A stretch of DNA of 64,000 nucleotides from an uncultured Planctomyces sp. (lineage in GTDB: Bacteria; Planctomycetota; Planctomycetia; Planctomycetales; Planctomycetaceae). The stretch is from assembly GCA_937899075.1 (NCBI GenBank), contig CALDJX010000209.1, forward strand, positions 5,019-69,018, read 5' to 3'. The position numbers were made by a program, and so were the translations under genes. Shown piece after piece: positions 16,662 through 48,392 of the stretch (within the stretch, counting starts at the first letter, position 1; each line of letters starts with the position of its first letter). The notes under the pieces are model-generated. The model made no database searches. It saw only the letters and a list, made by a program, of their open reading frames with translations, and was not told the DNA's origin.

Positions 16662-19600
16662 TCAGCCAGGAAACCGTCCGGTATCGATGAAAGCGCGAAG
16701 CTGCAAACTTACCACTTTCGACGCCTCTTGAAGCTCGGCAAGATGCTCTCGGATTCGATCAAGCTCGCCGTCTTTACCAGCCTTTTCGCAGTCAAATGCG
16801 AGATCATGCGCATCCGAAACACCGAATGTTCGAAAGTTGGCCTTTATCGTGTGAGCCATTCTTTGAGCTGTTTTCGCATCATCCTTCTTCAAGGCATATT
16901 TCAAATCTGCCATGACGATCCGGCCTTCTTCGAGAAACGCTCCGGCAATTTCACGCAATAAACCCCGGTCTCCCTGAGTGATTTTCAGAGCGACCGGCCA
17001 ATCCACCTGGTAGCTTTCCTGAGAGCCTGATTCGCCATCGGCCACGACGATCTTCGCAGCGACTTCTTCGCGAGACACGCCGACGGTGCGAGCGTCTTCG
17101 GCGAAGAACCCGCTCAACGCGTTAATCAACTGCCACGGCCGAACCGGCTTCGACACGTAGTCGTCCATGCCGGACTCCAGGCACAATTCACGATCACCTT
17201 TCATCGCGTGAGCGGTCATCGCGATAATGGGTAAATGACGATCGGTTCCGACCTCGCACTTTCGAATCTGGCGAGTGGCTTCCAGGCCGTCCATCTCCGG
17301 CATCTGAACGTCCATCAAAACGACGTCGAACGATTCTCGCGCCACGAGTTCGACAGCATCCTTACCGTTGTTTGCAACCGTGCCCGCATGTCCCCACTTC
17401 TTGAGCAGCGCCAGCGCGAGCTTCTGATTCACAACGCTGTCTTCAGCCAGCAGAACCCGCAACGGCGGGATAACAACTTCACGGCGTTGCGAATCTTCTG
17501 CATCCGGCCCCCCGGTATCGCCAGTTCCGTCGATAGCCAACGCCGCAACCAGAGAATCGAACAACTCTGATTGTTTGATCGGTTTTCGGATGTAGGCCGA
17601 CACTCCGAACTCGCGGCACTGTTCGACATCCTCTGAGCGATCGCCCGATGTGAGCATCATGATCACAGCGCCGGCGAGTTTTTCGTCGTTACGAATTTCT
17701 GCTGCGAGGGCGAAGCCGTCTTTGTCTGGCATGTGAACATCGCTGAGAACGAGGTCATAACCCTTGTCGGATTCGCGAGCTTGACGCAACGATTCAATCG
17801 CCAGGTCGACACCTTCGACACTCGTCGTTTCAATCCCCCAGTTGGTCAGCATCTCGTCGAGAATCAACCGGTTAGTGGCGTTGTCGTCGACGATCAAAAC
17901 GCGAGAACCCTGAACAATTCGTTGAGAAGGAGCTTTGGGCGGGGTGTCGGAAATTCCAAGCCGAGCCGTAAAGTGAAACGTGCTGCCTTTACCGAGTTCA
18001 CTGTCGGCCCAGATCGTTCCATGCATCAACTGCGTCAATCGAGAACAGATCGTCAGCCCAAGCCCTGTTCCGCCGTACTGCCGAGTCGTCGATGTGTCGG
18101 CCTGTTCGAAAGCCTGAAAGACGGACTTCAGTTTCGTTCGGGCGATTCCGATTCCCGTGTCGGCGACGGCAAAATGCAGCAACGCTGACTGGTCGTCCTG
18201 CTGATCAACTTCGACGTGCACAATCACTTCGCCCTGCTGCGTAAACTTGATCGCGTTACCAACCAGGTTCACAACGACCTGTCGCAGCCGCGACGGATCA
18301 CCAACCAACGCGTCAGGCACGGACGGGTCGATATGACAGGCCAGTTCCAGATCCTCACGATGAGCACGCACCGACAATGATCGCAGCGTGTCTCCCAGAG
18401 TGTCGCGAATGCTGAAGACAACAGAGTCGAGTTCGAGCTTTCCGGCTTCGATCTTTGAAAAGTCCAGAATGTCGTTGATGAGGCTCAGCAGCGAATCCGC
18501 AGAGTCACGCACCATTCCAAGGTACTCGTTCTGAGATTGTGTCAGCTCGGTATCGAGCACCAGTTCCGTCATACCAATCACGGCGTTCATCGGCGTGCGA
18601 ATTTCGTGACTCATATTGGCCAGGAAATCGCTCTTCGCCCGGTTGGCTGACTCGGCTGCTTCCTTGGATTCCCGCAGCTCCTGCTCAGCCCGTTTACGTT
18701 TCGTGATGTCATGCACGAAGGCGCTGAAGATGCACGATTCGGCGTCGCGGATCGGAGAAATCGTCACCTCGACCGGAAACTCTCGCCCGGATTTGTGCAA
18801 GGCGACCAGTTCCAGCCGGCGTTGAATGACGCTGCCTTCGCCGGTCTTCAGAAAATGCTTCAGACCGGCGAGATGAGCGGCGCGATACTGCTCTGGAATA
18901 ATCGTGTCGGCGAGCGTTTTGCCAAGAGCCTCTTCAGACTTCCAGCCAAAAATGACTTCCGCCTGAGGGTTCCAATCAATGATTGTTCCTTCGGCATCCA
19001 TCCCGACGAAAGCGTCGAGAGCCGTGTCGACGATCTGTCGATTGAGCCGTTCACTCTGACTAAGCGCGTTCAACGCTTCCTGCTGAGCGGTAATGTCACG
19101 AGAAACTCCGAACGTGCCGACCACTTTATTATCGCGATCCCGCAGCGGAAGTTTGCTGGTTGATACCCACGTCGTTCGACCGTCTGGCCAGGTTTCTTTC
19201 TCGACTTTGTCAAGAACCGGCTCACCCTGTTCCATCAACTCGACTTCGTCCGCTCGCGCCTGTGCCGCGTGCTCGTTCGCAAAGAAGTCCTTGTCGGTTT
19301 TCCCGACGGCGTCAGACGGTTCGCCCAGGTTAAACCAGTCAGCCATCGCGCGGCTGACGCGGATGAACCTGCTGTCGCGATCTTTGAAGTAGATGTTGTC
19401 CGGCAGGTTCTCCATCAATGAGCCAAGGAGGTAACGCTCCAGCTCAAGCTCTTTGCTCAGTCGCTGGCGTTCGAGCGCGTAGCTAATCGAATGTTCCAAC
19501 CGCGAGACGTCGAACACATCTTTGACAAGGTAGTCGGCTGCTCCGGCTTCGAGCGCTCGCTGATCGATCTCGCGATCGGTCTGTCCCGTCAGAATGATGA

Positions 19601-19874
19601 CGGGCGACTTTGAACCCGCGGCTTTAGCCTGGTGGAGAACCTCAATTCCGTCCGTCGCGCCCAGCCGATAATCCAGAAGATAGATCTCGTGCTGCCCGGC
19701 GAGAATTCCTGCCAGACCGGCCTCGGGCTCAGCGGTCCATTCAAGTTCGACAATGCGACCGTCGATCTCGCGAAGAAGCTCCTTCGTCAGCGCGAAGGTA
19801 TTTTCATCATCGTCGATCAACAGAATTCGCAGCGACTCGGGCATCGACACGTTCCAACGACAAGGGACACGCAT
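16662..19874 (-). CDS. Hybrid sensor histidine kinase with REC, two PAS, HisKA, HATPase, two further REC and HPt domains
   Basis: N-terminal REC (ILLIDDDEN...YLLDYRLG). H-box SHEIRTPMNAVIGM. G-boxes DTGIGI and GGTGLGL. Two receivers (LSDVHMPDKDG, LMDVQMPEMDG). C-terminal HPt AHTIKANFRTFG. The likely start is Met at 19844. Confidence 0.9.
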   Translation of the reverse strand: MRVPCRWNVSMPESLRILLIDDDENTFALTKELLREIDGRIVELEWTAEPEAGLAGILAGQHEIYLLDYRLGATDGIEVLHQAKAAGSKSPVIILTGQTDREIDQRALEAGAADYLVKDVFDVSRLEHSISYALERQRLSKELELERYLLGSLMENLPDNIYFKDRDSRFIRVSRAMADWFNLGEPSDAVGKTDKDFFANEHAAQARADEVELMEQGEPVLDKVEKETWPDGRTTWVSTSKLPLRDRDNKVVGTFGVSRDITAQQEALNALSQSERLNRQIVDTALDAFVGMDAEGTIIDWNPQAEVIFGWKSEEALGKTLADTIIPEQYRAAHLAGLKHFLKTGEGSVIQRRLELVALHKSGREFPVEVTISPIRDAESCIFSAFVHDITKRKRAEQELRESKEAAESANRAKSDFLANMSHEIRTPMNAVIGMTELVLDTELTQSQNEYLGMVRDSADSLLSLINDILDFSKIEAGKLELDSVVFSIRDTLGDTLRSLSVRAHREDLELACHIDPSVPDALVGDPSRLRQVVVNLVGNAIKFTQQGEVIVHVEVDQQDDQSALLHFAVADTGIGIARTKLKSVFQAFEQADTSTTRQYGGTGLGLTICSRLTQLMHGTIWADSELGKGSTFHFTARLGISDTPPKAPSQRIVQGSRVLIVDDNATNRLILDEMLTNWGIETTSVEGVDLAIESLRQARESDKGYDLVLSDVHMPDKDGFALAAEIRNDEKLAGAVIMMLTSGDRSEDVEQCREFGVSAYIRKPIKQSELFDSLVAALAIDGTGDTGGPDAEDSQRREVVIPPLRVLLAEDSVVNQKLALALLKKWGHAGTVANNGKDAVELVARESFDVVLMDVQMPEMDGLEATRQIRKCEVGTDRHLPIIAMTAHAMKGDRELCLESGMDDYVSKPVRPWQLINALSGFFAEDARTVGVSREEVAAKIVVADGESGSQESYQVDWPVALKITQGDRGLLREIAGAFLEEGRIVMADLKYALKKDDAKTAQRMAHTIKANFRTFGVSDAHDLAFDCEKAGKDGELDRIREHLAELQEASKVVSLQLRAFIDTGRFPG

Positions 19875-20009
19875 CCAACGTGTACGTTGGAAAACGAAAG
19901 TACGTCGTCAGAGTATCACACCTGCCCGTTCAGGTTCATGCCTGGAGCAGAATTCGTTAATACTGCCCTCGAATTTCGGCGAGTCGCGGTGCGAAATCGC
20001 TTGCTGGAA

Positions 20010-21686
20010 TTATTCTTTCTTATCGCCATCGGTCGGTCGTCGACGTCTGCGCCGGCGAGGTGGTCGCTGACCCTCTTCGCTTTTTTTCGTCGAATCTCCG
20101 CCTCGACTGGAACCTCCCCGCGGCGGTCCACTCCGTCCCTGGCTGGCTCCGCGAATGTTGGCTTCAACAATCGAGGACATCGCCTGTTCCCAGGTTGGCA
20201 CGTCGTCCCAGTTGTTGGTGGAATCTCGACTCGGACGGACATCCCTTTCCTCATCGTCGTCTGCCTCATCATCGTCGTCGTCGTCCGAGTCTTCGGCCTC
20301 GACGTCATCTGACTCAACTTCGCTGCTTTCCTCTGCGCGGGCGCGAGGTTTTCGGCGGCGACGGCGGCGACGTGGTCGTTTCTCTTCTTCTTCACCCTCT
20401 GAATCATCATCGTCCGCTGATTCTTCAGCGACTTCACCTTCGTCGTCATCTTCGACTTCCGAATCTTCGTCGGTCTCAACGCGAGGCTTGCGACTTCGAC
20501 GGCGACGTCTTCGGCGACGTGGTCGTTCCTCTTCGGAATCTTCCTCGTCGTTATCCGAATCCGAATCAGCGTCGGAATCGTCTTCCGTTTCGCTTTCTTC
20601 GTCGGAGTCGACTTCCGCTCCGAATTCATCGTCAGCAGGCTTGCGACGACGACGTCTGCGGCGTCGACGGCGTTTCGGCTGTTCCGACTCTTCTTCATCC
20701 GAATCGGCTTCAGAGTCCGCGTCGTCGGTAGCGGCTTCTTCCGAGTCTTCGTCGTTTTCATCCGAATCTTCTACCGAATCTTCTACCGCATCTTCGTCGA
20801 CCGGGCGACGTTTTCGGCTGCGGCGTCGACGGCGGCGTTTTGGCTTCTCTTCTTCATCGTCGTCGTCACGACTCGCTGCAACCGATGAATCTTCAGACTG
20901 GTCGTCGTCAGCAACGACCTCAGTTTTGTCGTCGTCGTACGCTTCATGCCCGAAGAAGTTTTCTTCTTCATCGTCGACAATTCCAGCGCCGAATCCGAAT
21001 GAATCGTCTTCCTGCGGTGGCGCGGGCTTTGTTTCTCGCGGCGGACGACTTTTCTTCGGACGATCTTCAGCGACTGGTTTTTTAGTGGCAGGCGCGGCCG
21101 CTTCGACACGGTCTCCGTCGTTGTCCACGCTGGTCCGCTTCGCTTCGACGGTTGGTTTCTTCTCTGCCGGGGGAGCGGATTCCGCTGCTGGACGTGACGA
21201 GCTTTTCTTTCCGCTGATCCCACCGACGTTCCAATCGTCGAGCGGGTCCCAGAAGGAATCATCGGCGTCCGACTTCGGGACGCTCTTTCGAGTCGGTCGC
21301 GGCTCACGGTCTTCAGCAACCGGTTCGGGTGTTCGGGTCGCCGTGCGGGCAGGTGCAGGCACGGGCTCAGCAGCGACTTTTTCTTCTTCCTCATCGTCAT
21401 CTTCAAAGATGATGTCGAAGTCGTCGTCATCGTCTTCGAAGACGATGTCTGAATCCTCGTCTTCGTCTTCAAAATCCGAATCGTCGGATTCTGCGACTGT
21501 CTCAGACTCGACTGGCTCGTCGTCGACGGGCTCTTCCGGTTCCGGCTGGGGATCCAGAGAGGAAAGATCGATCACTTCGAACGGCTCGTCATCGGAATCG
21601 GCCTTTCCGACGTCAATTCCAAAAAGGTCTTTAGCGAGACCTTCCCACGAGTCTGGATCGTTCGATGAATTTTGATTGGTTGTCAT
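20010..21686 (-). CDS. Intrinsically disordered, charge-block protein (polyacidic tracts alternating with poly-Arg runs)
   Basis: 558-aa ORF. Five runs of 6-10 consecutive Arg (e.g. KRRRRRRRRRRK, encoded by mixed CGN/AGA codons) separated by D/E/S-rich blocks. It has a non-repetitive N-terminus (DSWEGLAKDLFGIDVG) and a C-terminal motif (NNWDDVPTWEQAMSSIVEANIRG). The mirror Ser-rich ORF on the + strand is judged a shadow. Confidence 0.6.
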   Translation of the reverse strand: MTTNQNSSNDPDSWEGLAKDLFGIDVGKADSDDEPFEVIDLSSLDPQPEPEEPVDDEPVESETVAESDDSDFEDEDEDSDIVFEDDDDDFDIIFEDDDEEEEKVAAEPVPAPARTATRTPEPVAEDREPRPTRKSVPKSDADDSFWDPLDDWNVGGISGKKSSSRPAAESAPPAEKKPTVEAKRTSVDNDGDRVEAAAPATKKPVAEDRPKKSRPPRETKPAPPQEDDSFGFGAGIVDDEEENFFGHEAYDDDKTEVVADDDQSEDSSVAASRDDDDEEEKPKRRRRRRSRKRRPVDEDAVEDSVEDSDENDEDSEEAATDDADSEADSDEEESEQPKRRRRRRRRRRKPADDEFGAEVDSDEESETEDDSDADSDSDNDEEDSEEERPRRRRRRRRSRKPRVETDEDSEVEDDDEGEVAEESADDDDSEGEEEEKRPRRRRRRRKPRARAEESSEVESDDVEAEDSDDDDDDEADDDEERDVRPSRDSTNNWDDVPTWEQAMSSIVEANIRGASQGRSGPPRGGSSRGGDSTKKSEEGQRPPRRRRRRRPTDGDKKE

Positions 21687-22027
21687 GCGTTAAACATTCT
21701 CAAACACAAACAGGACTGGCATTGGGAGTTCTGCGAGAGCGGCCATGTGGCCCGTGAACGCCGTCTGGCGCCAGGCTCCGGCACAGAATCCGTTAGATAT
21801 TGCGTGAAGTCTGCCGTGTGGCAGCCTTTCAGAGAGTCGGAAAGAGCCGCGGAGTCTAGCGAGAAGGAACTTTCACCGCCATTTGGTCTTGCGAAATCTG
21901 TTCCGACCGAAATACCGCCGCGCCGGCATGTCCCTGCGCAAGGGATCCACATTGACACTTCTGGCCGGTCGCAAATACAAGCTGGCCTCTTCTATTTTCA
22001 CGACGCCAGGATTCCGGAGCGACAAGG

Positions 22028-23344
22028 ATGTCCTCTCTCTTTTCGGCTCGAACGCCACTGATTTTGTGCCTTTCCGTTGCTCTGACCGGTTGTGGAGGCT
22101 CGGAAACTCCTGAGGCCGACACCGCCGGCACCGGGACTGTGCAAGCTGCTCCTGACGGGAAAATTTCCGCACAACAGCAGGCCAGCAAGCTTGTCGAGCA
22201 GGCCATCGCCCAGATCAAGGATCAGAAGTTCGAGGACGCGGTCGCCAGCCTGAACAAGGCGATCGAAACCGACCATCAGAACTCCGAAGCCAGCTTTCAG
22301 CGAGCGGGCATCCTTGCCGACGTCGGGCAGGACCAGCTTGCTCTGAGCGATTATTCGCGAGCCGTCGAACTCAACCCGAACGACGTCCGCTACCGAAACA
22401 TGCGAGGGCTCTTCCTGCTGACCCGCAGCCAGCTCGACCAGGCGTTGACCGACTTCTCTGAAGCTGTCCGCATCGACCCCAAATACATTCAGTCATGGAA
22501 CAATCGAGGCCTGGTCAAACTCGCGAAGACCGACTTCCACGCCGCGATTGATGACTTTAACAAAGCCGTCGAAATCGACCCGACCTACGCTGACGGCTTT
22601 AACAACCGAGGCTTCGCGTGGTTCAAGATGGAGATCTTCGATAAAGCTCTGGCCGACTTCGACAAGACGCTGGAACTGAAACCGGGCTACATCAACGCGT
22701 TGAACAACCGAGGTATGCTGCACCTTCGTCTCAAGCAGCATCGAGAAGCTGTCGCTGACTTTTCCCAGGCGATCACGCACGACGAGAACAACCCGAAGCA
22801 CTATCAGAACCGCATGAGCGCTTACGCCGCGCTCGGCATGGCCGACAACGCACAGGCAGACCAGAGTCGCATCGAGTGGCTGCTCAAACTTGGCCAGATC
22901 AACAACATCGTCGCGCAGGCTCCACAGAGACCGGAAGGTTACATTCAGCGAGCCAGCCATCTGGCCGAAGCGGGCAAGCACGAAGTCGCTCTGGTTAATT
23001 ACGAGCAGGCAATCAAGGTGGCCTCCGACAAGGCAAGTCCCTGGACCAGCCGCGCGAAGTACTGGTTGCAGCGAGGTGATTTCACCAAAGCCATCGCCGA
23101 CTCGACCAAAGCCGTCGAAACCGAATTCAGCCACCCCGCGCTTTCAATCCGAGGCGACGCTTACCTGCAGCAAGGCGACTACGACAAAGCCATCGCCGAT
23201 TTCACCGCCGCCAAACGCCTCGATCCCGGAGTCGCGCAGGCTTACTACCAACGAGCGTTGCAGCGCAAGCAACAAGGCGACGAAACGGGCGCTCGGTCAG
23301 ACTACGAAACGGCATTGCAGCTCGATCCGCAGATCGGCCAGTAG
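22028..23344 (+). CDS. TPR-repeat lipoprotein
   Basis: Signal plus lipobox LILCLSVALTGCGG, followed by about 10 consecutive 34-aa TPR units (AIDDFNKAVEIDPTYADGFNNRGFAWFKMEIFDKALADFDKTLELKPGY...). Confidence 0.85.
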   Translation: MSSLFSARTPLILCLSVALTGCGGSETPEADTAGTGTVQAAPDGKISAQQQASKLVEQAIAQIKDQKFEDAVASLNKAIETDHQNSEASFQRAGILADVGQDQLALSDYSRAVELNPNDVRYRNMRGLFLLTRSQLDQALTDFSEAVRIDPKYIQSWNNRGLVKLAKTDFHAAIDDFNKAVEIDPTYADGFNNRGFAWFKMEIFDKALADFDKTLELKPGYINALNNRGMLHLRLKQHREAVADFSQAITHDENNPKHYQNRMSAYAALGMADNAQADQSRIEWLLKLGQINNIVAQAPQRPEGYIQRASHLAEAGKHEVALVNYEQAIKVASDKASPWTSRAKYWLQRGDFTKAIADSTKAVETEFSHPALSIRGDAYLQQGDYDKAIADFTAAKRLDPGVAQAYYQRALQRKQQGDETGARSDYETALQLDPQIGQ

Positions 23345-23370
23345 CGTCCCGATATGTCACGGCAGACCTC

Positions 23371-28464
<5,094 letters not shown>

Positions 28465-30343: not shown

Positions 30344-32647
30344 CTACCCGCGAAGGATCTGGGCGGCGCAGGCTTTGTAGGAAGGCTGTTTTGAGTAGGG
30401 GTCGAAGACGGCGTCGGTGAGTTGGTTGACCTCTTCGTAGTGCATGGGCAGGAAGAGTTGGCCGGGTTGGACGTTGGGGGTCACGAAGGCGCTGGCTCGG
30501 ACTCGGCCGCGTTGGGACATCACGATGACGGTGTCCTGAGGTTTGATGCCTCGTTTGCGTGCGTCGGTGGGGTTGATCTCGACGTACAGCTTTGCCGGGT
30601 AGAGCTTCTTCAGGACGGCGGACTTTGACGTTCGAGTCTGAGTGTGCCACTGCGAGGCCGTGCCTCGTCCCGTCAACAGAATCAGCGGAAACTGCGCCGA
30701 AGGTGGCTCGGGCATCGGCCTGGGTTCTTCGAACAGAAACTTCGCTCGACCGTCCGCGTGGTAGAAGCGGCCGTCTTCGAAGAGGCGACGCTGAGAGGGC
30801 TGAGGGCCACGGGTCGAGGGACGAGAGCCTTTGCCTTCTGCCTCTCGTCCCTCGACTCTTGACTCTCGACCTTCGAACGGCCACTGAATTCCGCCCAATT
30901 CGTCGAGCATGCGGTAATCGTCGACGCCGGTGATGTCGCAGGGCTGGTCGGCGGAGAGTTGCTTGAGAATCTGGAAGACCGCGTCGGGGGAACTCCATTT
31001 TTCGAACATCTTTCCGACGCCCCAGTAGTCGGCGATCAGTCGAAAAATGGAGAAGTCGGACAGCGCTTCGCCGGGTGCTTTGCGGACTTTCTTCAAGACC
31101 CCGATGCGGCGTTCTGAGTTGATGAAGGTCCCTTCTTTTTCTCCCCAGCCGGCTGCCGGTAGCACGAGGTCCGCCATCGTTGCGGTCTCGGTTGTGTGGT
31201 ACATGTCCTGCACGACGAGGAAGTCCAGTCGCTCCAAGATGTCGCGGCACTGAGTCTGGTTGATCCACGAGTGCGCCGGATTCGTGCAGATAACCCACAG
31301 GCCTTTGATCTTTCCTCGCAGGATGCCTTCGATGATTTCGTGATAGGCCCAGGAGGGTTCGCGCGGGATCTGTTCGGAGTCGATCGCCAGAATGTCCGCG
31401 ACTTTCTGACGGTGGTCTTCGTCCGCGAAGTCGTGACCGCCCAGCAGGTTGGTTGTGTTACTGAAAAGCCTCGAGCCCATCGCGTTGCACTGTCCGGTGA
31501 TCGAGTTTGCTCCCGTTCCCGGTCGGCCGATGTTTCCGGTCATCAACGCCAGGTTGATAATCGCTTGCGCGGTGCGGACCCCCTGGTAACTCTGATTGAC
31601 GCCCATCGTCCACCAGAAGGAGACACGTTTCCCGGCATGGATTATCTCGGCGAGGCGTTCGATCTGTTCGGCCGCCAGGCCTGTTTCTGCGGAAACTCGC
31701 TCAAGAGTGAACTGCTCAACGAAGGCAGCGAACTCGGTGAAACCGTTGGTGCTTTGCTCGATGAAAGAATCGTCCAGCCAGTTGTTGTCGATCAGAATTT
31801 TCGCGATTCCGTACAGCAGCGACTGGTCGGACTTCGGAGCCAGCGGCACGTGCTGCGTTGCCTGCATGGCGGTTTCGGTCATGCGAGGATCGATGACGAC
31901 GATCTCGGGCTCGTGTGGGTTTCGCATGACGCGTTCCCACATAATCGGATGGGCAATGCACAGGTTGCTGCCGACTAACACGATGACGTCGGACTCTTCG
32001 AAATCCTGATACGTGTACGGCGGCGCATCGAAGCCGAACGCCTGCTTGTACGCGACGACGGACGTCGCCATGCACTGCCGCGTGTTCCCGTCGCCGTGCA
32101 GGATGCCCATGCCGAATTTGGTTAGAGCACCGAGCAGAGCCATTTCTTCCGTGGGAATCTGCCCGGTGCTGAGAAACGCCACGGACTCCGTCCCATGACA
32201 CTGCTGAATGTTTTTGAAGCGATCGGTGAAGGTGCGGAGTGCCGTGTCCCAGTCGGTCGGAACGAGTTTGCCGGATTCATCTTTTATCAGCGGCCGTGTG
32301 GCTCGATCCGGTGAGTCGAGCACGGTCAGCGCTTCCCAGCCTTTCGGGCAAGCCATGCCCAGGTTGACCGGGTATTCGGTCGCCGGAGTCAGACTGACGG
32401 CTTCGCCGTCTTTCAGATGAATGTTGAGCCCGCAGCCTGTCGAGCAGTACCCGCACGTCATCGTTGTCGTCGCGTCAGGCTTCGACTTTGCCGGAACTTT
32501 CCCCAGGCCGAAGCCGCCCGGTTCAAGCAACAACTCGCGTGTGAGATGTCCGTCGCGCTGATGCATGAACGCAGGCAGTCGTGATTCCTGCACGACGGGC
32601 AGTTCCAGATCGACCGATTCGATTTCATCTGTGATTTCCGGCGGCAT
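30344..32647 (-). CDS. nasA: Assimilatory-type nitrate reductase catalytic subunit (molybdopterin oxidoreductase, NasA/NarB-like)
   Basis: N-terminal 4Fe-4S motif [14 protein letters not shown] and MopB-type core ([39 protein letters not shown]). There is no twin-arginine signal. Confidence 0.85.
30813..30856. repeat. 15-bp perfect inverted repeat inside nasA coding sequence
   Basis: gtcgagggacgagag (30813-30827) pairs with ctctcgtccctcgac (30842-30856), with a 14-nt loop. It is flanked by gaggg / ctcgac iterations and encodes ...[26 protein letters not shown]... Confidence 0.85.
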
Positions 32648-32653
32648 AAAACG

Positions 32654-34438
32654 TTAGCTCCTGATTGAACCGGGCATTCGTGGCGACGCCACCGCCGCGA
32701 AGAAGAGGTAACGCTCCAGCAACTCACCAGCCAGACACGCGATGAACAACATGCCCGTCACGATGACCAGGAAGATGGGATTCTGCGGAGTCTCGGAAGT
32801 CGCTCGAAGAAGCAGTGCCGGCATGGCGAGACCTCCAAGAACTCCGCAGGCAAATCTTGCGATCGTGAAACTCGCCAGCGATCCCGTCATCAGCAGAGCC
32901 GATCGTTTCATCGGAGTTGTTTGGCGACTCAGCAATGGTCGAAGCAGGCTGGCTTCGAACAGCAGTTTGACTCCGGCAATCAGAATCAACGACTGACAGA
33001 TACCGCGGCCGTAGGTTTCAATGATCCCCGAAACGCTGCCCGACTGATTGTCGCTTCCGAATGTCGACACAAGCAAAAGCGTCAACCAGACGGCGGCGAC
33101 GCCGAGCAGACACGTCGTCAGTCCGAAGCGAATCGACGACTGACCGAAGCTCCAGAACTCTCGGCGCGTGAATGCGTAAATCATGACCGAGCAGAAGACT
33201 CCAACCAGCCCCGAAATCGCCACGCCCCAACCCAGCCACGACTGAAAGAACTCGTTCCTGACGATCAGGTCGGGACCAAACCAGTTTCCAGCGGCATAGA
33301 TCACCGCCAGCTTGGCGAAGATCCCAAAGGCAACGATCTCGCGACTCAACCACGAATGCCGCAGTCCAATGATCGCTCGCCACGCGTACTGTGGCCGTCC
33401 CAGGTGGAGCGTGCTGGACGCCAGCGCGAGCAACCCGAAGACGAGAGCACTCAGCGAGTGAACCGGTCGCATGGCGGCGATGAGCGATTCATCAAGGAAT
33501 CGTTCCAGGACGAGCCCTGACAAAAACGCACCCACGGAAAGCTGTGTCAGCACCAGCATGATGATCAGCGGCCAGTGCGGATGCTGCGCGGACACCGAGT
33601 AATAATCCGCCGGCAGCAGGTTCCGCGGAAACACTCGCTTAGTTCGATAGGTTGTCGTGGGAAGCGTAATGTGCGGTTCGGGGGCGGCCGGGAGAAACAG
33701 ATTGGCTTCGGAGTCTTCGACGACCTGCTCGACATCAACGATGCGGATCGAAATCGCTTCGTGCGGGCACGACTGCACGCACGCCGGAGCTTCGCCCGCC
33801 GAAAGCCTGTCCGAACACATGTCGCACTTTCGGACGATGCCCTTCTGCTTGTGATATTTCGGTACGTCGTACGGACAGGCCAGCGTGCAGTACTGACAAC
33901 CGAAACATTGATCATCAAGGTGTTTGACGATGCCCGTGACGGGATTCTTCTCGTAAGCATCCACCGGGCAAGCCGTCATGCAGGCAGGTTCAATGCAGTG
34001 ATGACAGGCCGTCGTCACGTGCTGCATCACGGGATTTGCGCTGGTCCCTCCGACGAGCAAACCGACGTCACGCCACGTCTCCGTCTCGTCGAGTCCGTTC
34101 AATGAATGGCAGGCGGTCACGCACGCCTTGCATCCCGAGCACGCATCAAGGTCGACATCAAACGCGTACTGCTGACCCGGGCCGGGAGCCGTCGCAGGAA
34201 TCAGTGACGAGTAGTATCTCGACTGCGCAGGAGCCGCCTGTTCGTTGCAGGCCTGAGAAAACTGTTCGACCGCCGTCAGCTCCTGCTGATCCGCCAGCAG
34301 ACGTTCGAGCAGGGTTGGACCAATTGAAAGTCCTGCAACGATCGCCTCGGAGCCGCCTTTGTGATCTAAGCTGCTACTCGACACGAAGTCGGCTGGCGAT
34401 TGCATCTGATCAACTGTTTCATGGGAAGTCTCAGCCAC
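32654..34438 (-). CDS. Four-cluster 4Fe-4S ferredoxin (DmsB/NrfC-like) fused to an ~8-TM DmsC-like membrane anchor
   Basis: Cys motifs CSGCKACVTAC, CHHCIEPACMTAC, CFGCQYCTLAC and CDMCSDRL...CVQSC. The C-terminal ~330 aa hold about 8 hydrophobic helices. The stop lies 6 nt before the nasA start. GTG start at 34438, with an alternative ATG (MQSP). Confidence 0.8.
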   Translation of the reverse strand: MAETSHETVDQMQSPADFVSSSSLDHKGGSEAIVAGLSIGPTLLERLLADQQELTAVEQFSQACNEQAAPAQSRYYSSLIPATAPGPGQQYAFDVDLDACSGCKACVTACHSLNGLDETETWRDVGLLVGGTSANPVMQHVTTACHHCIEPACMTACPVDAYEKNPVTGIVKHLDDQCFGCQYCTLACPYDVPKYHKQKGIVRKCDMCSDRLSAGEAPACVQSCPHEAISIRIVDVEQVVEDSEANLFLPAAPEPHITLPTTTYRTKRVFPRNLLPADYYSVSAQHPHWPLIIMLVLTQLSVGAFLSGLVLERFLDESLIAAMRPVHSLSALVFGLLALASSTLHLGRPQYAWRAIIGLRHSWLSREIVAFGIFAKLAVIYAAGNWFGPDLIVRNEFFQSWLGWGVAISGLVGVFCSVMIYAFTRREFWSFGQSSIRFGLTTCLLGVAAVWLTLLLVSTFGSDNQSGSVSGIIETYGRGICQSLILIAGVKLLFEASLLRPLLSRQTTPMKRSALLMTGSLASFTIARFACGVLGGLAMPALLLRATSETPQNPIFLVIVTGMLFIACLAGELLERYLFFAAVASPRMPGSIRS

Positions 34439-34456
34439 AGTGAGCTTCTCCCATTT

Positions 34457-35300
34457 TCAGTATGAGTACCGCGAAGCGGTTGCATTCATTAGCCTGGGGT
34501 CGTCGCGTAGCGGCGCACCCCAGGAATTCAGTCTGGTGCGGTGTGAACGCTGAAAGCGTTCCACAATGACCAACGGCAAACAACGAAGCGAGTAACGATG
34601 GGCCAGTCTCTTGCGCAGATTTATCTACACCTCGTGTTTTCGACAAAACTCCGCAAACCGTTCCTGAGTAGCGACAACCTGCAATCGGAACTCCACGCAT
34701 ACCTCGCTGGCGCATGCCGTAACCTCGACAGCCCGTCACTACAGGTCGGAGGCGTTGAGGATCACGTCCATATCCTTTGTCAGCTTTCGAAAACGTTGTC
34801 AGTCGCCGATCTGGTACGAGAGTTGAAACGCGAGTCTTCGAAGTGGTTGAAACCTCGGATCGCCAACGTTCAATGGCAGCAAGGTTACGGTGCCTTTTCA
34901 GTAAGCCCTTCCCATGTGGACGCCTTGAAGGACTACATACGGAACCAGCAGGAGCATCATCGAATTGAGACCTTTCAGGATGAGTTGCGACGCCTGTTTC
35001 GAAAGTACGGCGTCGAGTTTGACGAACGGTACGTGTGGGAATGACCTTTCGAGGCGTGGTCAATTGTGGAACGCCTTCGGCGTACATTTGGTTGGCACAA
35101 AGTGAACCAGGGGTGCGCCGCTGCGCGGCGACCCCTGGCTGTTGAGTACAACCGCTTCGCGGTAATCCTGCATCCACACTTGCCGCCTTACTCAGCATGA
35201 GTACCGCGAAGCGGTTACATCCATTAGCCTGGGGTCGTCGCGCAGCGGCGCACCCCAGGTTGTGATGCTCGGACCAGTCGTACGCTGAAAGCGTTCCACA
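34457..35300. mobile_element. REPtron-like unit: RAYT gene flanked by REP hairpin modules
   Basis: Unit A (~63 nt, atgagtaccgcgaagcggtt...gcggcgcaccccagg) occurs at 34463-34525 and 35197-35259 (60/63 identical), with a more diverged inverted copy at 35107-35164. Unit B (aacgct-gaa-agcgttccaca) occurs at 34546-34566 and 35281-35300, with an inverted copy at 35065-35084. Confidence 0.65.
34598..35044 (+). CDS. REP-associated tyrosine transposase (IS200/IS605 TnpA-like Y1 HUH enzyme)
   Basis: 148 aa: IYLHLVFSTKLRKPFL, HUH motif DHVHIL, WQQGYGAFSVS (Tyr region), NQQEHH. It is opposite in orientation to the surrounding nas genes. Confidence 0.85.
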   Translation: MGQSLAQIYLHLVFSTKLRKPFLSSDNLQSELHAYLAGACRNLDSPSLQVGGVEDHVHILCQLSKTLSVADLVRELKRESSKWLKPRIANVQWQQGYGAFSVSPSHVDALKDYIRNQQEHHRIETFQDELRRLFRKYGVEFDERYVWE

Positions 35301-35340
35301 ACTCCTACAGACATGTCGTGCGGGAACGTCTGGGCACATG

Positions 35341-38426: not shown

Positions 38427-38564
38427 GTTCCTACGCTCTGCGTGGGAACCCACGCTCGGACGCTCCGCGTCCACGTTCTTTGGAACTGTTCGTGACAGAG
38501 TTGGTTTCCAATGCTCACGACGCGGAGCGTCAACAAGATTCGTTCCCACGCGGAGCGTAGGAAC
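38427..38564. repeat. Nested block of four palindromic units between narK and nirB
   Basis: Unit a is gttcctacgc-tct-gcgtgggaac (38427-38449). Unit b is ggacgc-tcc-gcgtcc (38458-38472). Unit c is gacgc-gga-gcgtc (38519-38531). Unit d is gttcccacgc-gga-gcgtaggaac (38542-38564). Unit a pairs with d, and b with c. Confidence 0.8.
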
Positions 38565-38600
38565 GAGTGGCGTCAGTAAGTTCGTGTGAATGAGCAGGGT

Positions 38601-40703: not shown

Positions 40704-40742
40704 AAAAAGCCGCGTCGTACCAATTGAGATACGACGCGGCTT
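40704..40742 (-). terminator. Intrinsic terminator downstream of the 40816..41649 gene
   Basis: On the minus strand, aagccgcgtcgta-(10-nt loop)-tacgacgcggctt is followed by ttttt. It lies ~75 nt after the stop codon. Confidence 0.65.
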
Positions 40743-40815
40743 TGTGCTTCTACGTGCTGACCAGACTTTGATTCACCGTCAAGACTGAAGGTGATCGCCG
40801 GTCGTTTAAGGCCGA

Positions 40816-42036: not shown

Positions 42037-42669
42037 TCAATTCAGCGTCGCGAGCAGTGCGTCCAGTTTGGCGTTGGCAGCGTCAGCCTCGTCCTGGGCC
42101 TGGTTGGCTTCGCTGATTCCGACGATCCCCAAAGTCGCTCCGGTAATTCCAGCGGCGGTTGCAGCCAAAGTGCCTGGCTGCATGAACTGGAGTGGCCCGA
42201 CCTCGTTCTGACCACGAACCGTTCGTTTTCCGACAACAACCAACGCGTTGGTTTTGGCACTCTTTGGTGCCGTCCCATTGGCCCAAACGCGGAAGACCGA
42301 AACTCCGTCAGCATGAACGATCTGATAGACGCCTCCGCGGAGGCGATTAACTCGGAACTGCCCGGCATCGTTCGTGGTTGTTTCGGCAACTGCCGTGCGG
42401 CCATGCCTGACGACAACCTTGCTACGAGCAACCGCTTTGCCCTGTCCGTCGACCACGACTCCGGTGAGTTCGCCGTTCTTACCGAGCGACACGTCCGTGA
42501 TCTTCAAAGCCGCCTGCTGGCTGGCTGTTGTGGGAAGGGAGGCGGGAGTTGAAGCCGCGGCGGTCGGAGACGTTGAACGATCGGCGGCGGCAACGTTTGA
42601 AGCTGGCACGACCGTGCCGACGGCCCCCAGAACCAGTAGTGCAGATTTCCAGCGGCCAATTGAATTCAT
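42037..42669 (-). CDS. Secreted protein with a carboxypeptidase-regulatory-like (Ig-like) domain
   Basis: Signal peptide SALLVLGAVGTVVPASNVAAA. Core GELTGVVVDGQGKAVARSKVVVRHGRTAVAETTTNDAGQFRVNRLRGGVYQIV. Confidence 0.5.
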   Translation of the reverse strand: MNSIGRWKSALLVLGAVGTVVPASNVAAADRSTSPTAAASTPASLPTTASQQAALKITDVSLGKNGELTGVVVDGQGKAVARSKVVVRHGRTAVAETTTNDAGQFRVNRLRGGVYQIVHADGVSVFRVWANGTAPKSAKTNALVVVGKRTVRGQNEVGPLQFMQPGTLAATAAGITGATLGIVGISEANQAQDEADAANAKLDALLATLN

Positions 42670-43179
42670 GGTTGAGCAATCCTTTTCCGTCGAGCCGCGT
42701 CAAATACTGACGGACACTTTCACTCTGTAAAGATCGAGTGCCAGGCGGATGGAGTACCGAAACTGTTCCAGCCAGGCCAACATTTCCGTTAAACGAATGA
42801 GCACGACCGTCGAATCGGGCCATGGCACTTGACATCGATATCGGAATGTCCGTCTCCCCGACTGGACACCATGCCCGCCGAGATAACGCTCGCTCAGCGC
42901 TGTTGGCCGAATTCGCCGCACAATCGCTACAATCCGAATAGTCGTCGCACAAGCGCCGCCTGACCTTCCCTGTGACCAGGTAAACAGTCACGACTTTATC
43001 GGTTCTGCCGGTTGCGGGGCCGGGTTGCTGAACGGGCAATGATGGCGGCTCAAGGAATTCTGCGATGTTGAGTCGGCGACAGATTCGCCGCCCACTATTC
43101 TGCTGGTTAAATTCATTACGTGTCGGTGGGCTCGCAAAACTCAGCGATGATGCAGCTTCAGAATCAGGAAAAACGGACG

Positions 43180-44376
43180 ATGACGCTCAGCAAACTTCCC
43201 CTCAGTTATTGCACCAACGTCCATCCTGGCTTGACCGTCCGAGAGGTCGAAGCAGGGCTGCGTGAAAATACCGTCGAGGTTCGAGGCCGAGTGGGCGAAC
43301 TTGCCGCCGGACTCTGGCTCGCTCGACCGGTGGCGACAGAGCTGCTCGACACGCCAGCGAACCTCGATCGATTCTCGGACTGGCTGAACGAAGCGGGGTT
43401 AACGTGCTACACGCTCAACACGTTTCCGTTTGGCAATTTTCACGACGCTCGCGTCAAGGAAAATGTCTATCTGCCGGATTGGTCACGCGACGACCGCATC
43501 AACTACACGCTGGACAGCGCCCGTATTCTGGCAAAGCTGATGCCCGACGACGGAACCGAAGGCAGCCTCTCGACTGTGCCGCTGGGCTTTAAGCCGTTTG
43601 ACTATCCCGAATCGTTTGCCGACGAGTGCGCAGGACGCCTGATCTCGCTGGCCAAGTTGCTCAAGCAGGTCGAAGAAGAAACCGGGCGGAAAATCCGACT
43701 GGCCATTGAGCCGGAGCCATTCTGCATTCTCGAAACGACGGCGGAGACGATTCAGTTCTTCCGCCGGTTGCGTGAACTGGCGGCCGATGCGGGATCGCTC
43801 GACGTCGTGAATGAGTACCTCGGAGTCTGCTACGACGTCTGCCACCAGGCAGTCGAGTTCGAAGACGTCGCCGACTCAATCAAACAACTCGTCGACGAGC
43901 AGATTCGCATTAACAAAGTCCACATCACCTGCGCGATTCGTGTCGAAAATCCTGGCGACAACGAAGATGCCCGGCAGGCGCTCGCGAGATATGTCGAACC
44001 CCGATATCTCCATCAGACAATGGCTCGCGCCGCCAACGGCACGATTCACAGGCAGGTTGACCTGACCGAGGACACGGCACTGTCGCCCCCGGATTCCTTC
44101 GCCTCCGCCGAAGAATGGCGAGTTCACTTCCACGTGCCCGTGAATGCTGAATCGCTCGGCCCGTTACAGACGACTCGTGGAGACCTCAAGAAAGCGCTGG
44201 CCGCCGTGCGCGATCTGGACTACGCGCCCCACCTGGAAGTCGAAACTTATACCTGGGAAGTCCTGCCGGACGGCCAGCAAACATCGCTCGTCGACGGGCT
44301 CACCGCAGAAGTTGAAGCCACGCGAACGTTGCTCGATGAGTTGAGCGAACATCGAACATCGAACATCCAACACTGA
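43180..44376 (+). CDS. Xylose-isomerase-like TIM-barrel protein resembling EboE
   Basis: The preferred start is MTLSKLPLSYCTNVHPGLTVREVEAGL. The N-terminal xxYCTNVHxG motif is what I recall for EboE-type proteins. The call is from memory only. Confidence 0.45.
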   Translation: MTLSKLPLSYCTNVHPGLTVREVEAGLRENTVEVRGRVGELAAGLWLARPVATELLDTPANLDRFSDWLNEAGLTCYTLNTFPFGNFHDARVKENVYLPDWSRDDRINYTLDSARILAKLMPDDGTEGSLSTVPLGFKPFDYPESFADECAGRLISLAKLLKQVEEETGRKIRLAIEPEPFCILETTAETIQFFRRLRELAADAGSLDVVNEYLGVCYDVCHQAVEFEDVADSIKQLVDEQIRINKVHITCAIRVENPGDNEDARQALARYVEPRYLHQTMARAANGTIHRQVDLTEDTALSPPDSFASAEEWRVHFHVPVNAESLGPLQTTRGDLKKALAAVRDLDYAPHLEVETYTWEVLPDGQQTSLVDGLTAEVEATRTLLDELSEHRTSNIQH

Positions 44377-44421
44377 ACATCGAACCGGCTTCTGCCTTCG
44401 ACATTCCTTGTTCGATATTCG

Positions 44422-45660
44422 CTATTCAGCAACGTCATGCTCAAGCCACTTGAGCACGAGCGCCAGCTGGTTCGGCAGCCAGTCTTTCAGCGTATAAATC
44501 CCGTGACCAAGTACGGCCAGCCTCGCGGGTCCAAAGCGAGTCAGCTGCGAAGACTCATAATCAACCAGCAGGTTGCGACCGTCAGAATGCAGCCGGGTCC
44601 GAGTCTGCCAACGCGCACACGTCACCTTCAGCTTTTCTTTCAACTTCTCAGGCGTCGGTTCGAGCAGACCTCGTTCAAGAAACTCGCCCAGCCGAGCGTT
44701 CGCTTTCCGTTTGAGCGGCGGGGCGATGTCCGTTCCGGCGATCGCAAATGCCTGAACCCAGTCGCCGTGCTTTGCAGAAAGAACGTCTGCTACGCCGGTT
44801 GTGGCGGCGGTGAAGTTGTCTGCCAGGCTGTTGCCTTCGCACCCGAATGTAACAGCCGGCACAATGGCTGCCGGATCATCGGCATCCTGAATCGGCCGAT
44901 GATGAATCACGTGGACCAGCGATCGCAGACCGTCCATGTCCCATCCGTACCTGACCGGCGTGCCGAACGTGACGACAAGCGCTGCATTCGCCATCGGATG
45001 CGGAGTCGGTGCCTCGGCCAGCGCTTGACGAGCAACCTCTCCAGCTGGCCCCAGCGAATCGCCAGCCGCTTCGAAAAATGCTTCGACGCTCGCTCGATCA
45101 TTGGCCAGCAGGTTGGACAGAATCGCAAACCCGTTTCCCGCGTGACTATGCCCCCACAGCAGAACTCGCTCGTGTGTTGGATCGAAACCGTTGGCCTGAA
45201 GCTGAGCAAGTTCGTTCAGCAACCGCACCGCAAGTCCAGCTCGAGCGACATGATTGTTCTCGCTGCTCCAGGTCGGTTCGAGACGACTCACGTCGGGATC
45301 GTCCCCAACGAGTGTCTGAAATCGTTCCCGATATCCGTCGCTGTAATTCGCGACGTCAGCCGTGATCGTATCGGTGAGCCGTTTCGTCTGTTCGGACAAG
45401 CGATCGATCAACGGATTGATCGCCAGCCTGGCCGGCGCCGGCAACGATTCGGCACCGGCCCGCATCATTGCATGAATGCCAAGCGGATCGTCCCCCGCAA
45501 ACGTCCCATGAACGAGCAGCACTTTTCGCACACCGAACTGAGTATGCAGATGCCCGAAGTCGAGACTCTGCACGGCATCGCCGTCAAGCTGCAGGACAAC
45601 CGACGGAACCGACGGCTGAGTCGGATAAGACTGATGCCGAAATCCGTTTTGACGAGGCAT
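44422..45660 (-). CDS. Hypothetical protein, possible alpha/beta-hydrolase fold
   Basis: 412 aa with VLLVHGTFAGDD and LLWGHSHAGN (nucleophile-elbow-like). No firm family assignment. Confidence 0.4.
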   Translation of the reverse strand: MPRQNGFRHQSYPTQPSVPSVVLQLDGDAVQSLDFGHLHTQFGVRKVLLVHGTFAGDDPLGIHAMMRAGAESLPAPARLAINPLIDRLSEQTKRLTDTITADVANYSDGYRERFQTLVGDDPDVSRLEPTWSSENNHVARAGLAVRLLNELAQLQANGFDPTHERVLLWGHSHAGNGFAILSNLLANDRASVEAFFEAAGDSLGPAGEVARQALAEAPTPHPMANAALVVTFGTPVRYGWDMDGLRSLVHVIHHRPIQDADDPAAIVPAVTFGCEGNSLADNFTAATTGVADVLSAKHGDWVQAFAIAGTDIAPPLKRKANARLGEFLERGLLEPTPEKLKEKLKVTCARWQTRTRLHSDGRNLLVDYESSQLTRFGPARLAVLGHGIYTLKDWLPNQLALVLKWLEHDVAE

Positions 45661-45723
45661 GACTCACTCCTGAATATTCCGACAGCAAACCGACTGAATC
45701 CGCGATTCAGTTTCGGCCGGCGA

Positions 45724-47139: not shown

Positions 47140-47418
47140 CAGGGAGTCTCCTCGGTGGTTGATCGTCGGTGGGGATTGCAGGGTTGATGATCGAAATTAC
47201 TGCTTCGAGCGATTCGGCTTTTGGAGAACCTTAAATCGTGCCGCGCCGAAGCGACAAATCCTACCGAGCCGACCTCACGCGTTAAACCGGGCGAGACATC
47301 CAGGCGTCACTTCAGTCAGGATTCAGGGTTTCCAGTTTCAGGCTGTTAAACGACGATCCCGACCTGAATGACCGCCTGATAGATTCCAAACTGTTCGATC
47401 CATGAACCGCCATATCCA

Positions 47419-48261: not shown

Positions 48262-48320
48262 GCTGCCGATCTTACTAAGGAACGTGTCGTGAATAAGTTC
48301 CTGAAATGATCAGCAGAATC

Positions 48321-48392
48321 TAACCACAGAGGCTCAGAGACACAGAGAAAAACTTTCCTGTCAAACTCTGTGTCTCTGTGCCTCTGTGGTTA
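48321..48392. repeat. 27-bp inverted repeat (one mismatch) between convergent genes; bidirectional terminator/REP-like
   Basis: taaccacagaggctcagagacacagag (48321-48347) pairs with ctctgtgtctctgtgcctctgtggtta (48366-48392). Confidence 0.8.

Follow-up and report, generated by a model that had tools for sequence, protein, structure and literature searches.

The window analysed here, a 64,000-nucleotide stretch of contig CALDJX010000209.1 (positions 5,019 to 69,018) from the assembly GCA_937899075.1 of an uncultured Planctomyces sp., contains a nitrate-assimilation cluster in which the gene for a NasA-type nitrate reductase lies directly downstream of a gene for a 594-amino-acid (aa) protein, referred to below as the fusion, that joins a DmsB-type iron-sulfur domain to a DmsC-type membrane anchor. 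We consider it likely that the fusion and NasA make up one cytoplasm-facing, membrane-anchored quinol:nitrate oxidoreductase that serves nitrate assimilation. With less conviction, we lean toward regarding NasA and its fused DmsB-DmsC/SoeC-like module as a third class of assimilatory nitrate reductase in bacteria, one dependent on quinol. A preliminary description of this DNA had suggested a hybrid of this kind, membrane-anchored, cytoplasm-facing, and quinol-linked, and the family of the membrane half, its predicted topology, and the conservation of gene order all speak for that suggestion.

Bacterial nitrate reductases are conventionally divided into soluble Nas enzymes, which draw on NAD(P)H or ferredoxin, the membrane-bound Nar, and the periplasmic Nap. 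A survey of the dimethyl sulfoxide (DMSO) reductase family reported no member of the formate dehydrogenase (FDH)/Nas/Aio/Nap clade with canonical four-cluster or membrane-anchor subunits (PMC7331816), a statement that the gene pair described here contradicts. Likewise, a review of NrfD-like subunits includes no nitrate-assimilation complex in its list (PMC8076601), and no description of a Nas enzyme with a DmsB-DmsC module was found in the full-text literature searched, which leaves most subscription journals outside it. The system is widespread and apparently undescribed in the searchable literature. The preliminary description, which did not recognize it as a known system, stands in that respect; the design is not without precedent, since a cytoplasm-facing molybdoenzyme with a heme-less NrfD/DmsC anchor is known in SoeABC (PMC8076601).

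The Fusion Protein

Homologues of the fusion are full-length and 43-90% identical to it. The cysteines of its iron-sulfur half fall into four groups (C100/103/106/110, C145/148/153/157, C178/181/184/188, and C205/208/220/224) with exactly the spacing of Escherichia coli DmsB, and all 16 are invariant in alignments of 14 and of 64 sequences. The domain matches the Pfam family Fer4_11 (5e-23) and is 36% identical to E. coli DmsB, to which it is nearer (141 bits) than to a SoeB-like protein (96 bits). Sequence matches in the PDB were to FdnH, PcrB, PsrB, and ArrB, and Foldseek returned ArrB, FdnH, and PcrB.

Eight hydrophobic helices follow (aa 290-577), modelled by AlphaFold2 (AF2) with a predicted local distance difference test score (pLDDT) mostly above 90. 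This membrane half scores 51.6-53.8 bits against Pfam DmsC (PF04976; gathering cut-off 22.3; 1.2e-13) over profile positions 6-273 of 275, and in fold (Foldseek) it matches ActC, the NrfD-like subunit of alternative complex III. A profile built from 274 family members is colinear with residues 7-277 of E. coli DmsC (60.9 bits) and scores higher, at 73.1 bits, against a SoeC-like protein of Azospirillum, with which the fusion has the motif 'HLGRP..AWRA....SWLSRE' in common. Four ferredoxin cysteine motifs, about eight transmembrane helices, and a membrane half of DmsC/NrfD type had been proposed for this reading frame in the preliminary description, and each is borne out by these comparisons.

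The quinone/quinol site of DmsC comprises Ser62, His65, Ser82, and Glu87, and replacement of His65 in the E. coli protein blocks quinol oxidation (PMC8076601). These four residues align to S342, H345, S362, and E367 of the fusion. All are invariant among 14 sequences; among 64, H345, S362, and E367 remain invariant and S342 is conserved in at least 90%. We regard them as the putative quinol site of the fusion.

Conservation extends beyond the recognized domains. Homologue alignments begin at about aa 40, and the region spanning aa 40-90, with the consensus 'LLERLL.EQQ.LTAVE.FS...PAQ..YYS.LIPA..PGPGQQYAF', has columns that are invariant or nearly so and is kept in Acidimicrobiales as well; AF2 predicts helices there at low confidence, and neither Pfam nor NCBIfam yielded a family match. 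The linker between the iron-sulfur domain and the first transmembrane helix (aa 236-286) is highly conserved in both homologue alignments, with low AF2 confidence.

The Catalytic Subunit

NasA comprises the Pfam domains Molybdop_Fe4S4, Molybdopterin, and Molydop_binding. Its N-terminus has the CxxCxxxC pattern noted at the outset, in the form C65-x2-C68-x3-C72, which together with C100 gives the cysteines of the FS0 cluster. Among solved structures, NasA comes closest to Desulfovibrio NapA (345 bits), whose molybdenum-ligand pair Cys140-Met141 is aligned with Cys192-Met193 of NasA in the motif R-Q-C192-M-A; the RQCMA motif is also present in the partner NasA of Acidimicrobiales. Cys192 is the predicted molybdenum ligand, and the Cys-Met pair is the nitrate-reductase pattern. 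Formate dehydrogenases have (Se)Cys-His at this motif. NasA falls under every NCBIfam equivalog cut-off (score/cut-off in bits: NasA_Halo NF041323, 462/1000; NasC NF047855, 427/1100; NapA NF010055, 339/904; Fdh-alpha, 502/666).

NasA proteins associated with a fusion are 62-90% identical across phyla, whereas annotated plasmid-borne assimilatory nitrate reductases are 33-38% identical to NasA and align only from residue 54-65. The stretch of about 35 residues that precedes the first cysteine, 'QRDGxLTRELLLxPGGFGLGxVP', is kept in partner NasA proteins of Planctomycetota, Vicinamibacterales, and Acidimicrobiales, and has no Pfam match and no meaningful NCBIfam match. Because of their mutual identity, their distance from annotated Nas, and this extension, the partner NasA proteins look like a distinct subclade. 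The nearest plasmid-borne relative, on a plasmid of Cetobacterium somerae (L087, 5983-9741), is 46% identical and lacks the extension. Downstream of it are encoded a small 4Fe-4S dicluster protein and an FAD-dependent oxidoreductase, a different, soluble wiring of a Nas-like enzyme, and the arrangement presumably resembles that of Clostridium perfringens NarABC.

The extension is not a signal peptide; it may be a docking arm or a remnant twin-arginine translocation (Tat) peptide. It bears a loose likeness to a degenerate Tat motif ('LTRELLLE' against S/T-R-R-x-F-L-K), and the Acidimicrobiales homologue (L083, 9608-9700) starts 'SLRRRRPGALTAELV'. NarG has a remnant signal peptide with a chaperone-binding or docking role, and, speculatively, the NasA extension might be such a remnant reused for the same purposes.

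Export Signals and Membrane Orientation

Neither protein has an export signal that we could recognize, in agreement with the preliminary description of both reading frames. NasA lacks a twin-arginine motif and any hydrophobic or uncharged h-region signal. The first 90 residues of the fusion are hydrophilic and free of a Tat motif, and its iron-sulfur domain precedes the first transmembrane helix. A regular-expression search gave Tat-like strings in three of 69 NasA open reading frames (ORFs) and one of 77 fusion homologues; all were rejected, being located in over-extended upstream frames.

The loops of the membrane domain were split into two groups, those on the side of the N-terminal iron-sulfur domain and those on the opposite side, and their lysines and arginines (K+R) were counted. 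The mean is 12.8 on the iron-sulfur side versus 2.5 on the other, and the same bias is found in all 274 homologues (43-90% identity), which by the positive-inside rule predicts a cytoplasmic location for both the iron-sulfur domain and the quinol site. The iron-sulfur domain would thereby share a side with the signal-less NasA, as had been proposed. In a single alignment frame, the K+R counts (iron-sulfur side/other side) are 13/4 for the fusion, 2/6 for E. coli DmsC, and 12/0 for the Azospirillum SoeC-like anchor. In E. coli DmsABC the AB subunits are on the periplasmic (P) side (PMC8076601); the charge bias of the fusion anchor is opposite to that of E. coli DmsC and does not fit the periplasm-facing DmsC type.

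Gene Pairing and Distribution

The stop codon of the fusion gene (32654-32656) is separated by 6 nt from the nasA ATG at 32647, as first described, and the Shine-Dalgarno sequence AGGAG of nasA lies within the end of the fusion ORF, which suggests translational coupling of the two genes. The 6-nt spacing depends on taking this ATG as the start. The ATG is backed by the Shine-Dalgarno sequence and by close relatives; cross-phylum conservation starts only at codon 28.

The pairing was followed through a collection holding one genome per GTDB species, in which at least 512 stretches contain a relative of the fusion. The best 80 loci were kept; 74 were informative for synteny downstream (at least 600 nt of sequence) and 58 upstream (at least 5 kb). 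Each of the 74 loci has a NasA homologue directly downstream of the fusion and in the same orientation, and because the same pair recurs in every one the arrangement is far beyond chance. The adjacency first seen in the window is thus general among these relatives. NirBD and/or NarK is encoded in 56 of the 58 loci with sufficient upstream sequence; narK is retained in 45, and no NirBD homologue was found in 22. One apparent exception to synteny, locus L053, in which the downstream enzyme is 40% identical, was rejected, since its frames are broken in a long-read metagenome-assembled genome (MAG) and narK is fragmented; we treated it as sequencing error or a pseudogene. A 1577-aa ORF in L025 that appeared to join an upstream gene to the iron-sulfur-DmsC fusion was likewise discarded as spurious read-through, its upstream part having no domain match in frame.

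The best 80 loci belong to Planctomycetota (Planctomycetaceae, Pirellulales, and Phycisphaera) and Vicinamibacterales (Acidobacteriota). Together with Actinomycetota (Acidimicrobiales) and Myxococcota, the pair occurs in four phyla. The closest genome locus is that of an uncultured Planctomycetaceae MAG, with 90-97% protein identity throughout the cluster, and a fusion homologue at 87% identity is labelled Rhodopirellula sp. An exhaustive search of representative proteins returned 928 clusters at 50% identity (E <1e-30), of which the top 150 are all full-length fusions.

The more distant operons are compact. The order in Acidimicrobiales is a regulator with HEM4 and Trans_reg_C domains, a major facilitator superfamily (MFS) transporter, NirB, NirD, the fusion, NasA, and an ACT-domain protein; in both loci, 4-nt overlaps link the genes from nirB onward, and molybdenum cofactor biosynthesis genes are near the operon in one of them (L085). 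We take the HEM4 and Trans_reg_C pair to be that of NnaR, the actinobacterial regulator of nitrate/nitrite assimilation; for control by nitrate induction and ammonium repression, such a regulator is no more than a hint. The Myxococcota MAG locus (L086) encodes NirBD, an MFS transporter, the fusion, NasA, and a TP_methylase-family protein, perhaps a methylase of siroheme synthesis. In the Acidimicrobiales and Myxococcota relatives, the end of the fusion gene and the start of nasA share 4 nt.

The accompanying nitrite reductase takes several forms. NirB and NirD are a single polypeptide in the window (1022 aa) and in the Myxococcota locus (988 aa), and are encoded by separate genes in Acidimicrobiales. 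In relatives without NirBD (L017, 7023-9893), a gene for a 956-aa protein with NirA-like, Rieske, and FNR-like domains lies between narK and the fusion gene. In its product, two NIR_SIR and NIR_SIR_ferr modules are combined with a Rieske domain and an FNR-like FAD/NAD module, an unusual architecture that suggests a nitrite reductase able to use NAD(P)H on its own. The nitrite reductase thus varies among fused NirBD, separate NirB and NirD, and NirA-Rieske-FNR, and the fusion-NasA pair is constant.

Proposed Mechanism

In the mechanism that we propose, NarK would import nitrate, and a quinol, presumably menaquinol, would bind the DmsC-like domain near the cytoplasmic face at S342, H345, S362, and E367. 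NasA would dock on the iron-sulfur domain of the fusion, and two quinol electrons would pass through the four [4Fe-4S] clusters of the DmsB-like domain to the NasA FS0 cluster and on to the molybdenum-bis(pyranopterin guanine dinucleotide) (Mo-bisPGD) center, with Cys192 as ligand, at which nitrate would be reduced to nitrite. Nitrite would then be reduced to ammonium with NAD(P)H by NirBD, or by another nitrite reductase in some relatives. Menaquinone is the quinone type of planctomycetes. With potentials of about -75 mV for menaquinol and about +420 mV for nitrate/nitrite, the menaquinol:nitrate reaction is strongly exergonic. By itself the quinol:nitrate step is probably not electrogenic, because quinol oxidation and nitrate reduction are both placed on the cytoplasmic side; if the NrfD-like domain sends quinol protons outward, it could even be electrogenic. 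We favor the quinol pool over NADH or ferredoxin as the probable electron source because NasA is always paired with a cytoplasm-facing iron-sulfur and quinol-binding membrane fusion.

Read directly from the sequences are the domain identities, the cofactor ligands and quinol-site residues, the lack of export signals, the charge-bias topology, and an obligate pair of coupled genes. Several points weigh against the quinol-linked complex. The physical association of NasA with the fusion, and its dependence on quinol, we infer from gene adjacency, coupling, and sequence. The orientation comes from the positive-inside rule, which predicts statistically and does not measure. The membrane half gave no meaningful match in NCBIfam, where no model claims the anchor. 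The iron-sulfur domain scores 131.5 bits with TIGR02951 (DMSO_dmsB), below the equivalog cut-off of 214.1, and by its sequence is DmsB-like, not a DmsB equivalog; AF2 models it with only moderate confidence (pLDDT 42-86). Two further points, the architecture of NasA and the presence of NirBD, also bear on the first of the alternatives below.

Alternative Readings

NasA could instead be reduced by NirB/NirD with NAD(P)H, or by a soluble ferredoxin, with the fusion only tethering it to the membrane, assisting assembly, or being an unrelated neighbor. NirB/NirD-type proteins feed Nas in Paracoccus and Klebsiella, the textbook case being the NirD-like NasG of Paracoccus, which relays electrons to NasC, and a NirBD with a Rieske-type NirD domain is encoded in this cluster. 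NasA itself has an architecture like that of cyanobacterial NarB, which has no extra domains and takes its electrons from soluble ferredoxin. Against such a supply, the type of nitrite reductase varies and NirBD was not found in 22 of 58 loci, whereas the fusion and NasA are never apart. The invariance of the 16 cluster cysteines and of the putative quinol-site residues (S342 at its slightly lower level) would be unexpected in a mere tether, and translational coupling of the two genes argues against an accessory role. We judge this reading unlikely.

A little less probable again is a mainly dissimilatory role, in which the complex would be a cytoplasmic quinol:nitrate reductase of anaerobic respiration or redox balancing, with ammonium formed through NirBD. 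B and C modules of this kind are typical of respiratory enzymes, any nitrate reductase that oxidizes quinol terminates, by definition, a branch of the electron-transport chain, and NirBD also operates in the fermentative ammonification of enterobacteria described in textbooks. The catalytic subunit, however, belongs to the Nas/Nap clade and not to that of NarG; quinol site and active site are predicted to share one side of the membrane, which would leave no redox loop; and the context is that of a nas operon, in which narK and a siroheme nitrite reductase are joined by a TP_methylase-family gene and a regulator with NnaR-type domains. Dissimilatory and assimilatory roles are not mutually exclusive.

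Improbable, in our estimate, is a substrate other than nitrate (formate, chlorate, or sulfite), which would make the enzyme a substrate:quinone oxidoreductase like SoeABC or a formate:quinone oxidoreductase. The top NCBIfam score of NasA is indeed to the formate dehydrogenase alpha subunit, albeit under the cut-off, the JGI label of the fusion is 'formate dehydrogenase iron-sulfur subunit', and the anchor resembles a SoeC-like protein. Yet the molybdenum-ligand motif is Cys-Met as in NapA rather than the (Se)Cys-His of formate dehydrogenases, NapA is the best solved relative, a SoeA-like protein matches NasA at just 23% identity over 254 aa, and a nitrate transporter and a nitrite reductase constantly accompany the pair. 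Finally, most DmsBC/NrfCD-type modules face the periplasm (PMC8076601) and the NasA extension is loosely Tat-like ('TRELLL' in the window, 'RRRR' in the Acidimicrobiales homologue), but a Nap-like reductase whose iron-sulfur domain and NasA reach the periplasm by an unrecognized route of export is highly improbable, given the lack of a twin-arginine motif and of an uncharged h-region, an iron-sulfur domain that precedes the first transmembrane helix with no signal peptide, a K+R bias that is, in all 274 homologues, strongly the reverse of that in E. coli DmsC, and a nitrate importer encoded alongside.

Gene Order and Other Features of the Window

The features of the cluster are listed in Table 1. 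Family scans place narK, the nirB-nirD fusion, and nasA all on the same strand (minus), as the preliminary description had stated. NirBD exceeds both NCBIfam cut-offs (TIGR02374, 1075 bits; TIGR02378 NirD, 120 bits); NarK matches MFS_1 in Pfam and scores 284 bits with TIGR00886, slightly under the cut-off of 312. The cluster is bordered by a DUF1571 gene upstream and a convergent argH downstream.

Table 1. Features of the nitrate-assimilation cluster (window coordinates)
Feature	Coordinates	Strand	Basis
narK, NarK-family MFS nitrate/nitrite transporter, 481 aa	38601-40046	-	TIGR00886, MFS_1
NirB-NirD fusion, NAD(P)H-dependent siroheme nitrite reductase, 1022 aa	35341-38409	-	TIGR02374, TIGR02378, Pfam
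Non-coding spacer between nirBD and the fusion gene, with three ~110-nt structured repeats	34439-35340	.	Repeat and ORF analysis
Iron-sulfur-DmsC fusion gene, 594 aa, GTG start preceded by GGGAGA	32654-34438	-	ORF listing, Pfam
Fusion, N-terminal conserved region, aa 40-90	34169-34321	-	Near-invariant alignment columns
Fusion, DmsB-type four-cluster ferredoxin domain, aa 91-235, 16 invariant Cys	33734-34168	-	Fer4_11, DmsB alignment
Fusion, linker from iron-sulfur domain to first transmembrane helix, aa 236-286	33581-33733	-	Alignment conservation
Fusion, DmsC/SoeC-like eight-helix membrane domain, aa 287-594	32657-33580	-	Pfam DmsC, profile alignment, AF2
nasA Shine-Dalgarno sequence AGGAG	32658-32662	-	In final codons of fusion ORF, direct sequence read
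nasA-type catalytic subunit, 767 aa	30344-32647	-	ORF listing, Pfam domains
NasA, conserved N-terminal extension, aa 28-62, ahead of first Cys motif	32462-32566	-	Homologue alignment

About 900 bp of non-coding, repeat-filled DNA parts nirBD from the fusion gene. A 302-aa ORF in this interval (34431-35339) was rejected as a gene, having no family match and an arginine-rich translation and being built of repeated non-coding elements. Two repeat copies are direct (34457-34566 and 35192-35301) and one is inverted (~35063-35171). One copy folds into three hairpins (z = -3.0), and the repeat matches the Rfam Acido-Lenti-1 RNA at 25.4 bits, under the threshold of 37. A strict 33-nt repeat pattern has one copy, at the same position, in the closest relative (L001) and none in the other 84 fetched loci; in L002 just ~100 bp lie between nirBD and the fusion gene. 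Candidate identities for the repeat are a repetitive extragenic element and a leader or regulatory RNA.

A 16-bp GC-rich hairpin with a T-tract (40706-40743, minus strand), after the DUF1571 gene and just upstream of narK, resembles an intrinsic terminator, and a 12-bp hairpin (38540-38566, minus strand) lies between narK and nirBD. A promoter scan of the nas cluster gave no sigma-70-like site, and terminator-like sites were not commoner than in shuffled sequences. No NarJ/TorD/NapD-like maturation chaperone was identified among the scanned flanking ORFs of at least 200 aa (16662-28464 and 42037-49356).

Elsewhere in the window, a 558-aa ORF (20010-21686, minus strand) encodes an extremely charged, low-complexity sequence in which long Asp/Glu runs are broken by blocks of 6-9 Arg; it has no Pfam match, it lies where AT skew departs most strongly in the window (-0.278), and a 506-aa ORF on the opposite strand overlaps it. 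Two large minus-strand genes have no evident link to the nas cluster, a 1697-aa Lhr-type large helicase (23371-28464) and a 1070-aa hybrid sensor kinase (16662-19874) in which PAS domains are combined with three receiver stretches and an Hpt domain. The FTR gene (formylmethanofuran-tetrahydromethanopterin formyltransferase; 48421-49356, minus strand) is consistent with a planctomycete origin, as planctomycetes possess a tetrahydromethanopterin-linked C1 pathway.

Implications

If a third class of assimilatory nitrate reductase is indeed represented here, the first step of nitrate assimilation would be a terminal quinol oxidase of the respiratory chain, and reducing power would pass through energy-conserving quinone reductases before it reached nitrate. 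Should the mechanism hold, nitrate assimilation and respiration would draw on one quinol pool, with assimilation as a branch of the respiratory chain, and current models would need a different energy and redox cost for nitrate assimilation in lineages that are abundant in the sea and in soil. Annotation is also affected. Database labels of the fusion include 'anaerobic DMSO reductase chain B', 'DmsC/YnfH family membrane anchor', and 'formate dehydrogenase iron-sulfur subunit', and these could mislead metabolic reconstructions from MAGs toward DMSO respiration or formate oxidation.

Comparison with Known Systems

The canonical Nas enzymes (Klebsiella NasA/NasC, Paracoccus NasC-NasG-NasB, Bacillus NasBC, NarB, and Haloferax Nas) have in common with the present NasA a cytoplasmic Mo-bisPGD center with a Cys ligand, the FS0 cluster, and a nitrate transporter and nitrite reductase encoded alongside. 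Their donors are NAD(P)H flavoproteins or soluble ferredoxin or flavodoxin. They differ in having no membrane anchor and no N-terminal extension, and in being only 33-38% identical.

NarGHI resembles the proposed complex in oxidizing quinol with nitrate, in its cytoplasmic active site, and in having a four-cluster electron-transfer subunit and a membrane anchor. NarG belongs to another clade of the DMSO reductase family and has an Asp ligand, and NarI is a di-heme cytochrome b that oxidizes quinol at the periplasmic face and so completes a proton-motive redox loop. The anchor of the fusion, in contrast, is heme-less, and its quinol site is predicted on the cytoplasmic side. The Nap systems (NapAB with NapGH or NapC) offer the closest solved relative of the catalytic subunit in NapA, electrons from the quinol pool, and a poly-ferredoxin in NapG, but they are Tat-exported and periplasmic, and NapH and NapC are unrelated to DmsC.

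DmsABC and YnfFGH of E. coli are built on the same B and C families, with the similarity to DmsB, the colinear DmsC, and the retained quinol-site residues described above. DmsAB, however, is Tat-exported and periplasmic, the charge bias of the anchor is opposite, the subunits are separate polypeptides, and DmsA is distant from NasA (100 bits). A further parallel is ForCE of Bacillus subtilis, a menaquinone-linked formate dehydrogenase in which a cytoplasmic enzyme of the FDH/Nas clade reaches the menaquinone pool through a non-canonical partner; ForE, though, has neither transmembrane helices nor iron-sulfur clusters, the substrate is formate, and electrons flow toward quinone (PMC8808070).

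SoeABC is the only described molybdoenzyme with an NrfD/DmsC-type anchor in which A and B are thought to be cytoplasmic and the anchor inverted, and SoeC is listed with the same His65/Glu87/Ser82 quinone-site residues (PMC8076601). As in SoeABC of Allochromatium vinosum and Aquifex aeolicus, the system described here has no Tat signal, a four-cluster B module, and a heme-less eight-helix C module. The Azospirillum SoeC-like protein used in our comparisons, which is like the fusion in its loop motifs and K+R bias, is encoded on a plasmid of Azospirillum brasilense (L082, 3993-8725) together with a signal-less molybdoenzyme and a four-cluster protein, adjoining xsc (sulfoacetaldehyde acetyltransferase). 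We take that operon to be soeABC because it adjoins xsc and its A subunit lacks a signal peptide, and its position fits sulfite oxidation in sulfonate catabolism. The differences from SoeABC lie in the catalytic subunit (77 bits between the SoeA-like protein and NasA, as against 345 bits between NasA and NapA), in the direction of electron flow, which is expected to be reversed, from quinol to substrate, in the joining of B and C in one polypeptide, and in a substrate, nitrate, and an assimilatory role that are those suggested by the gene context.

The fusion-NasA system is not Nar (by clade and anchor), not Nap (no Tat signal), not DmsABC (inverted anchor and a different A subunit), and not SoeABC (a different A subunit). 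Its architecture is like that of a SoeABC turned to nitrate reduction, or of a NarGHI without the heme-b redox loop. Because SoeABC provides the precedent, we see it as a variation on an existing cytoplasm-facing design and not as a new category. It would be a second example, after SoeABC, in which to study the membrane inversion of NrfD/DmsC anchors.

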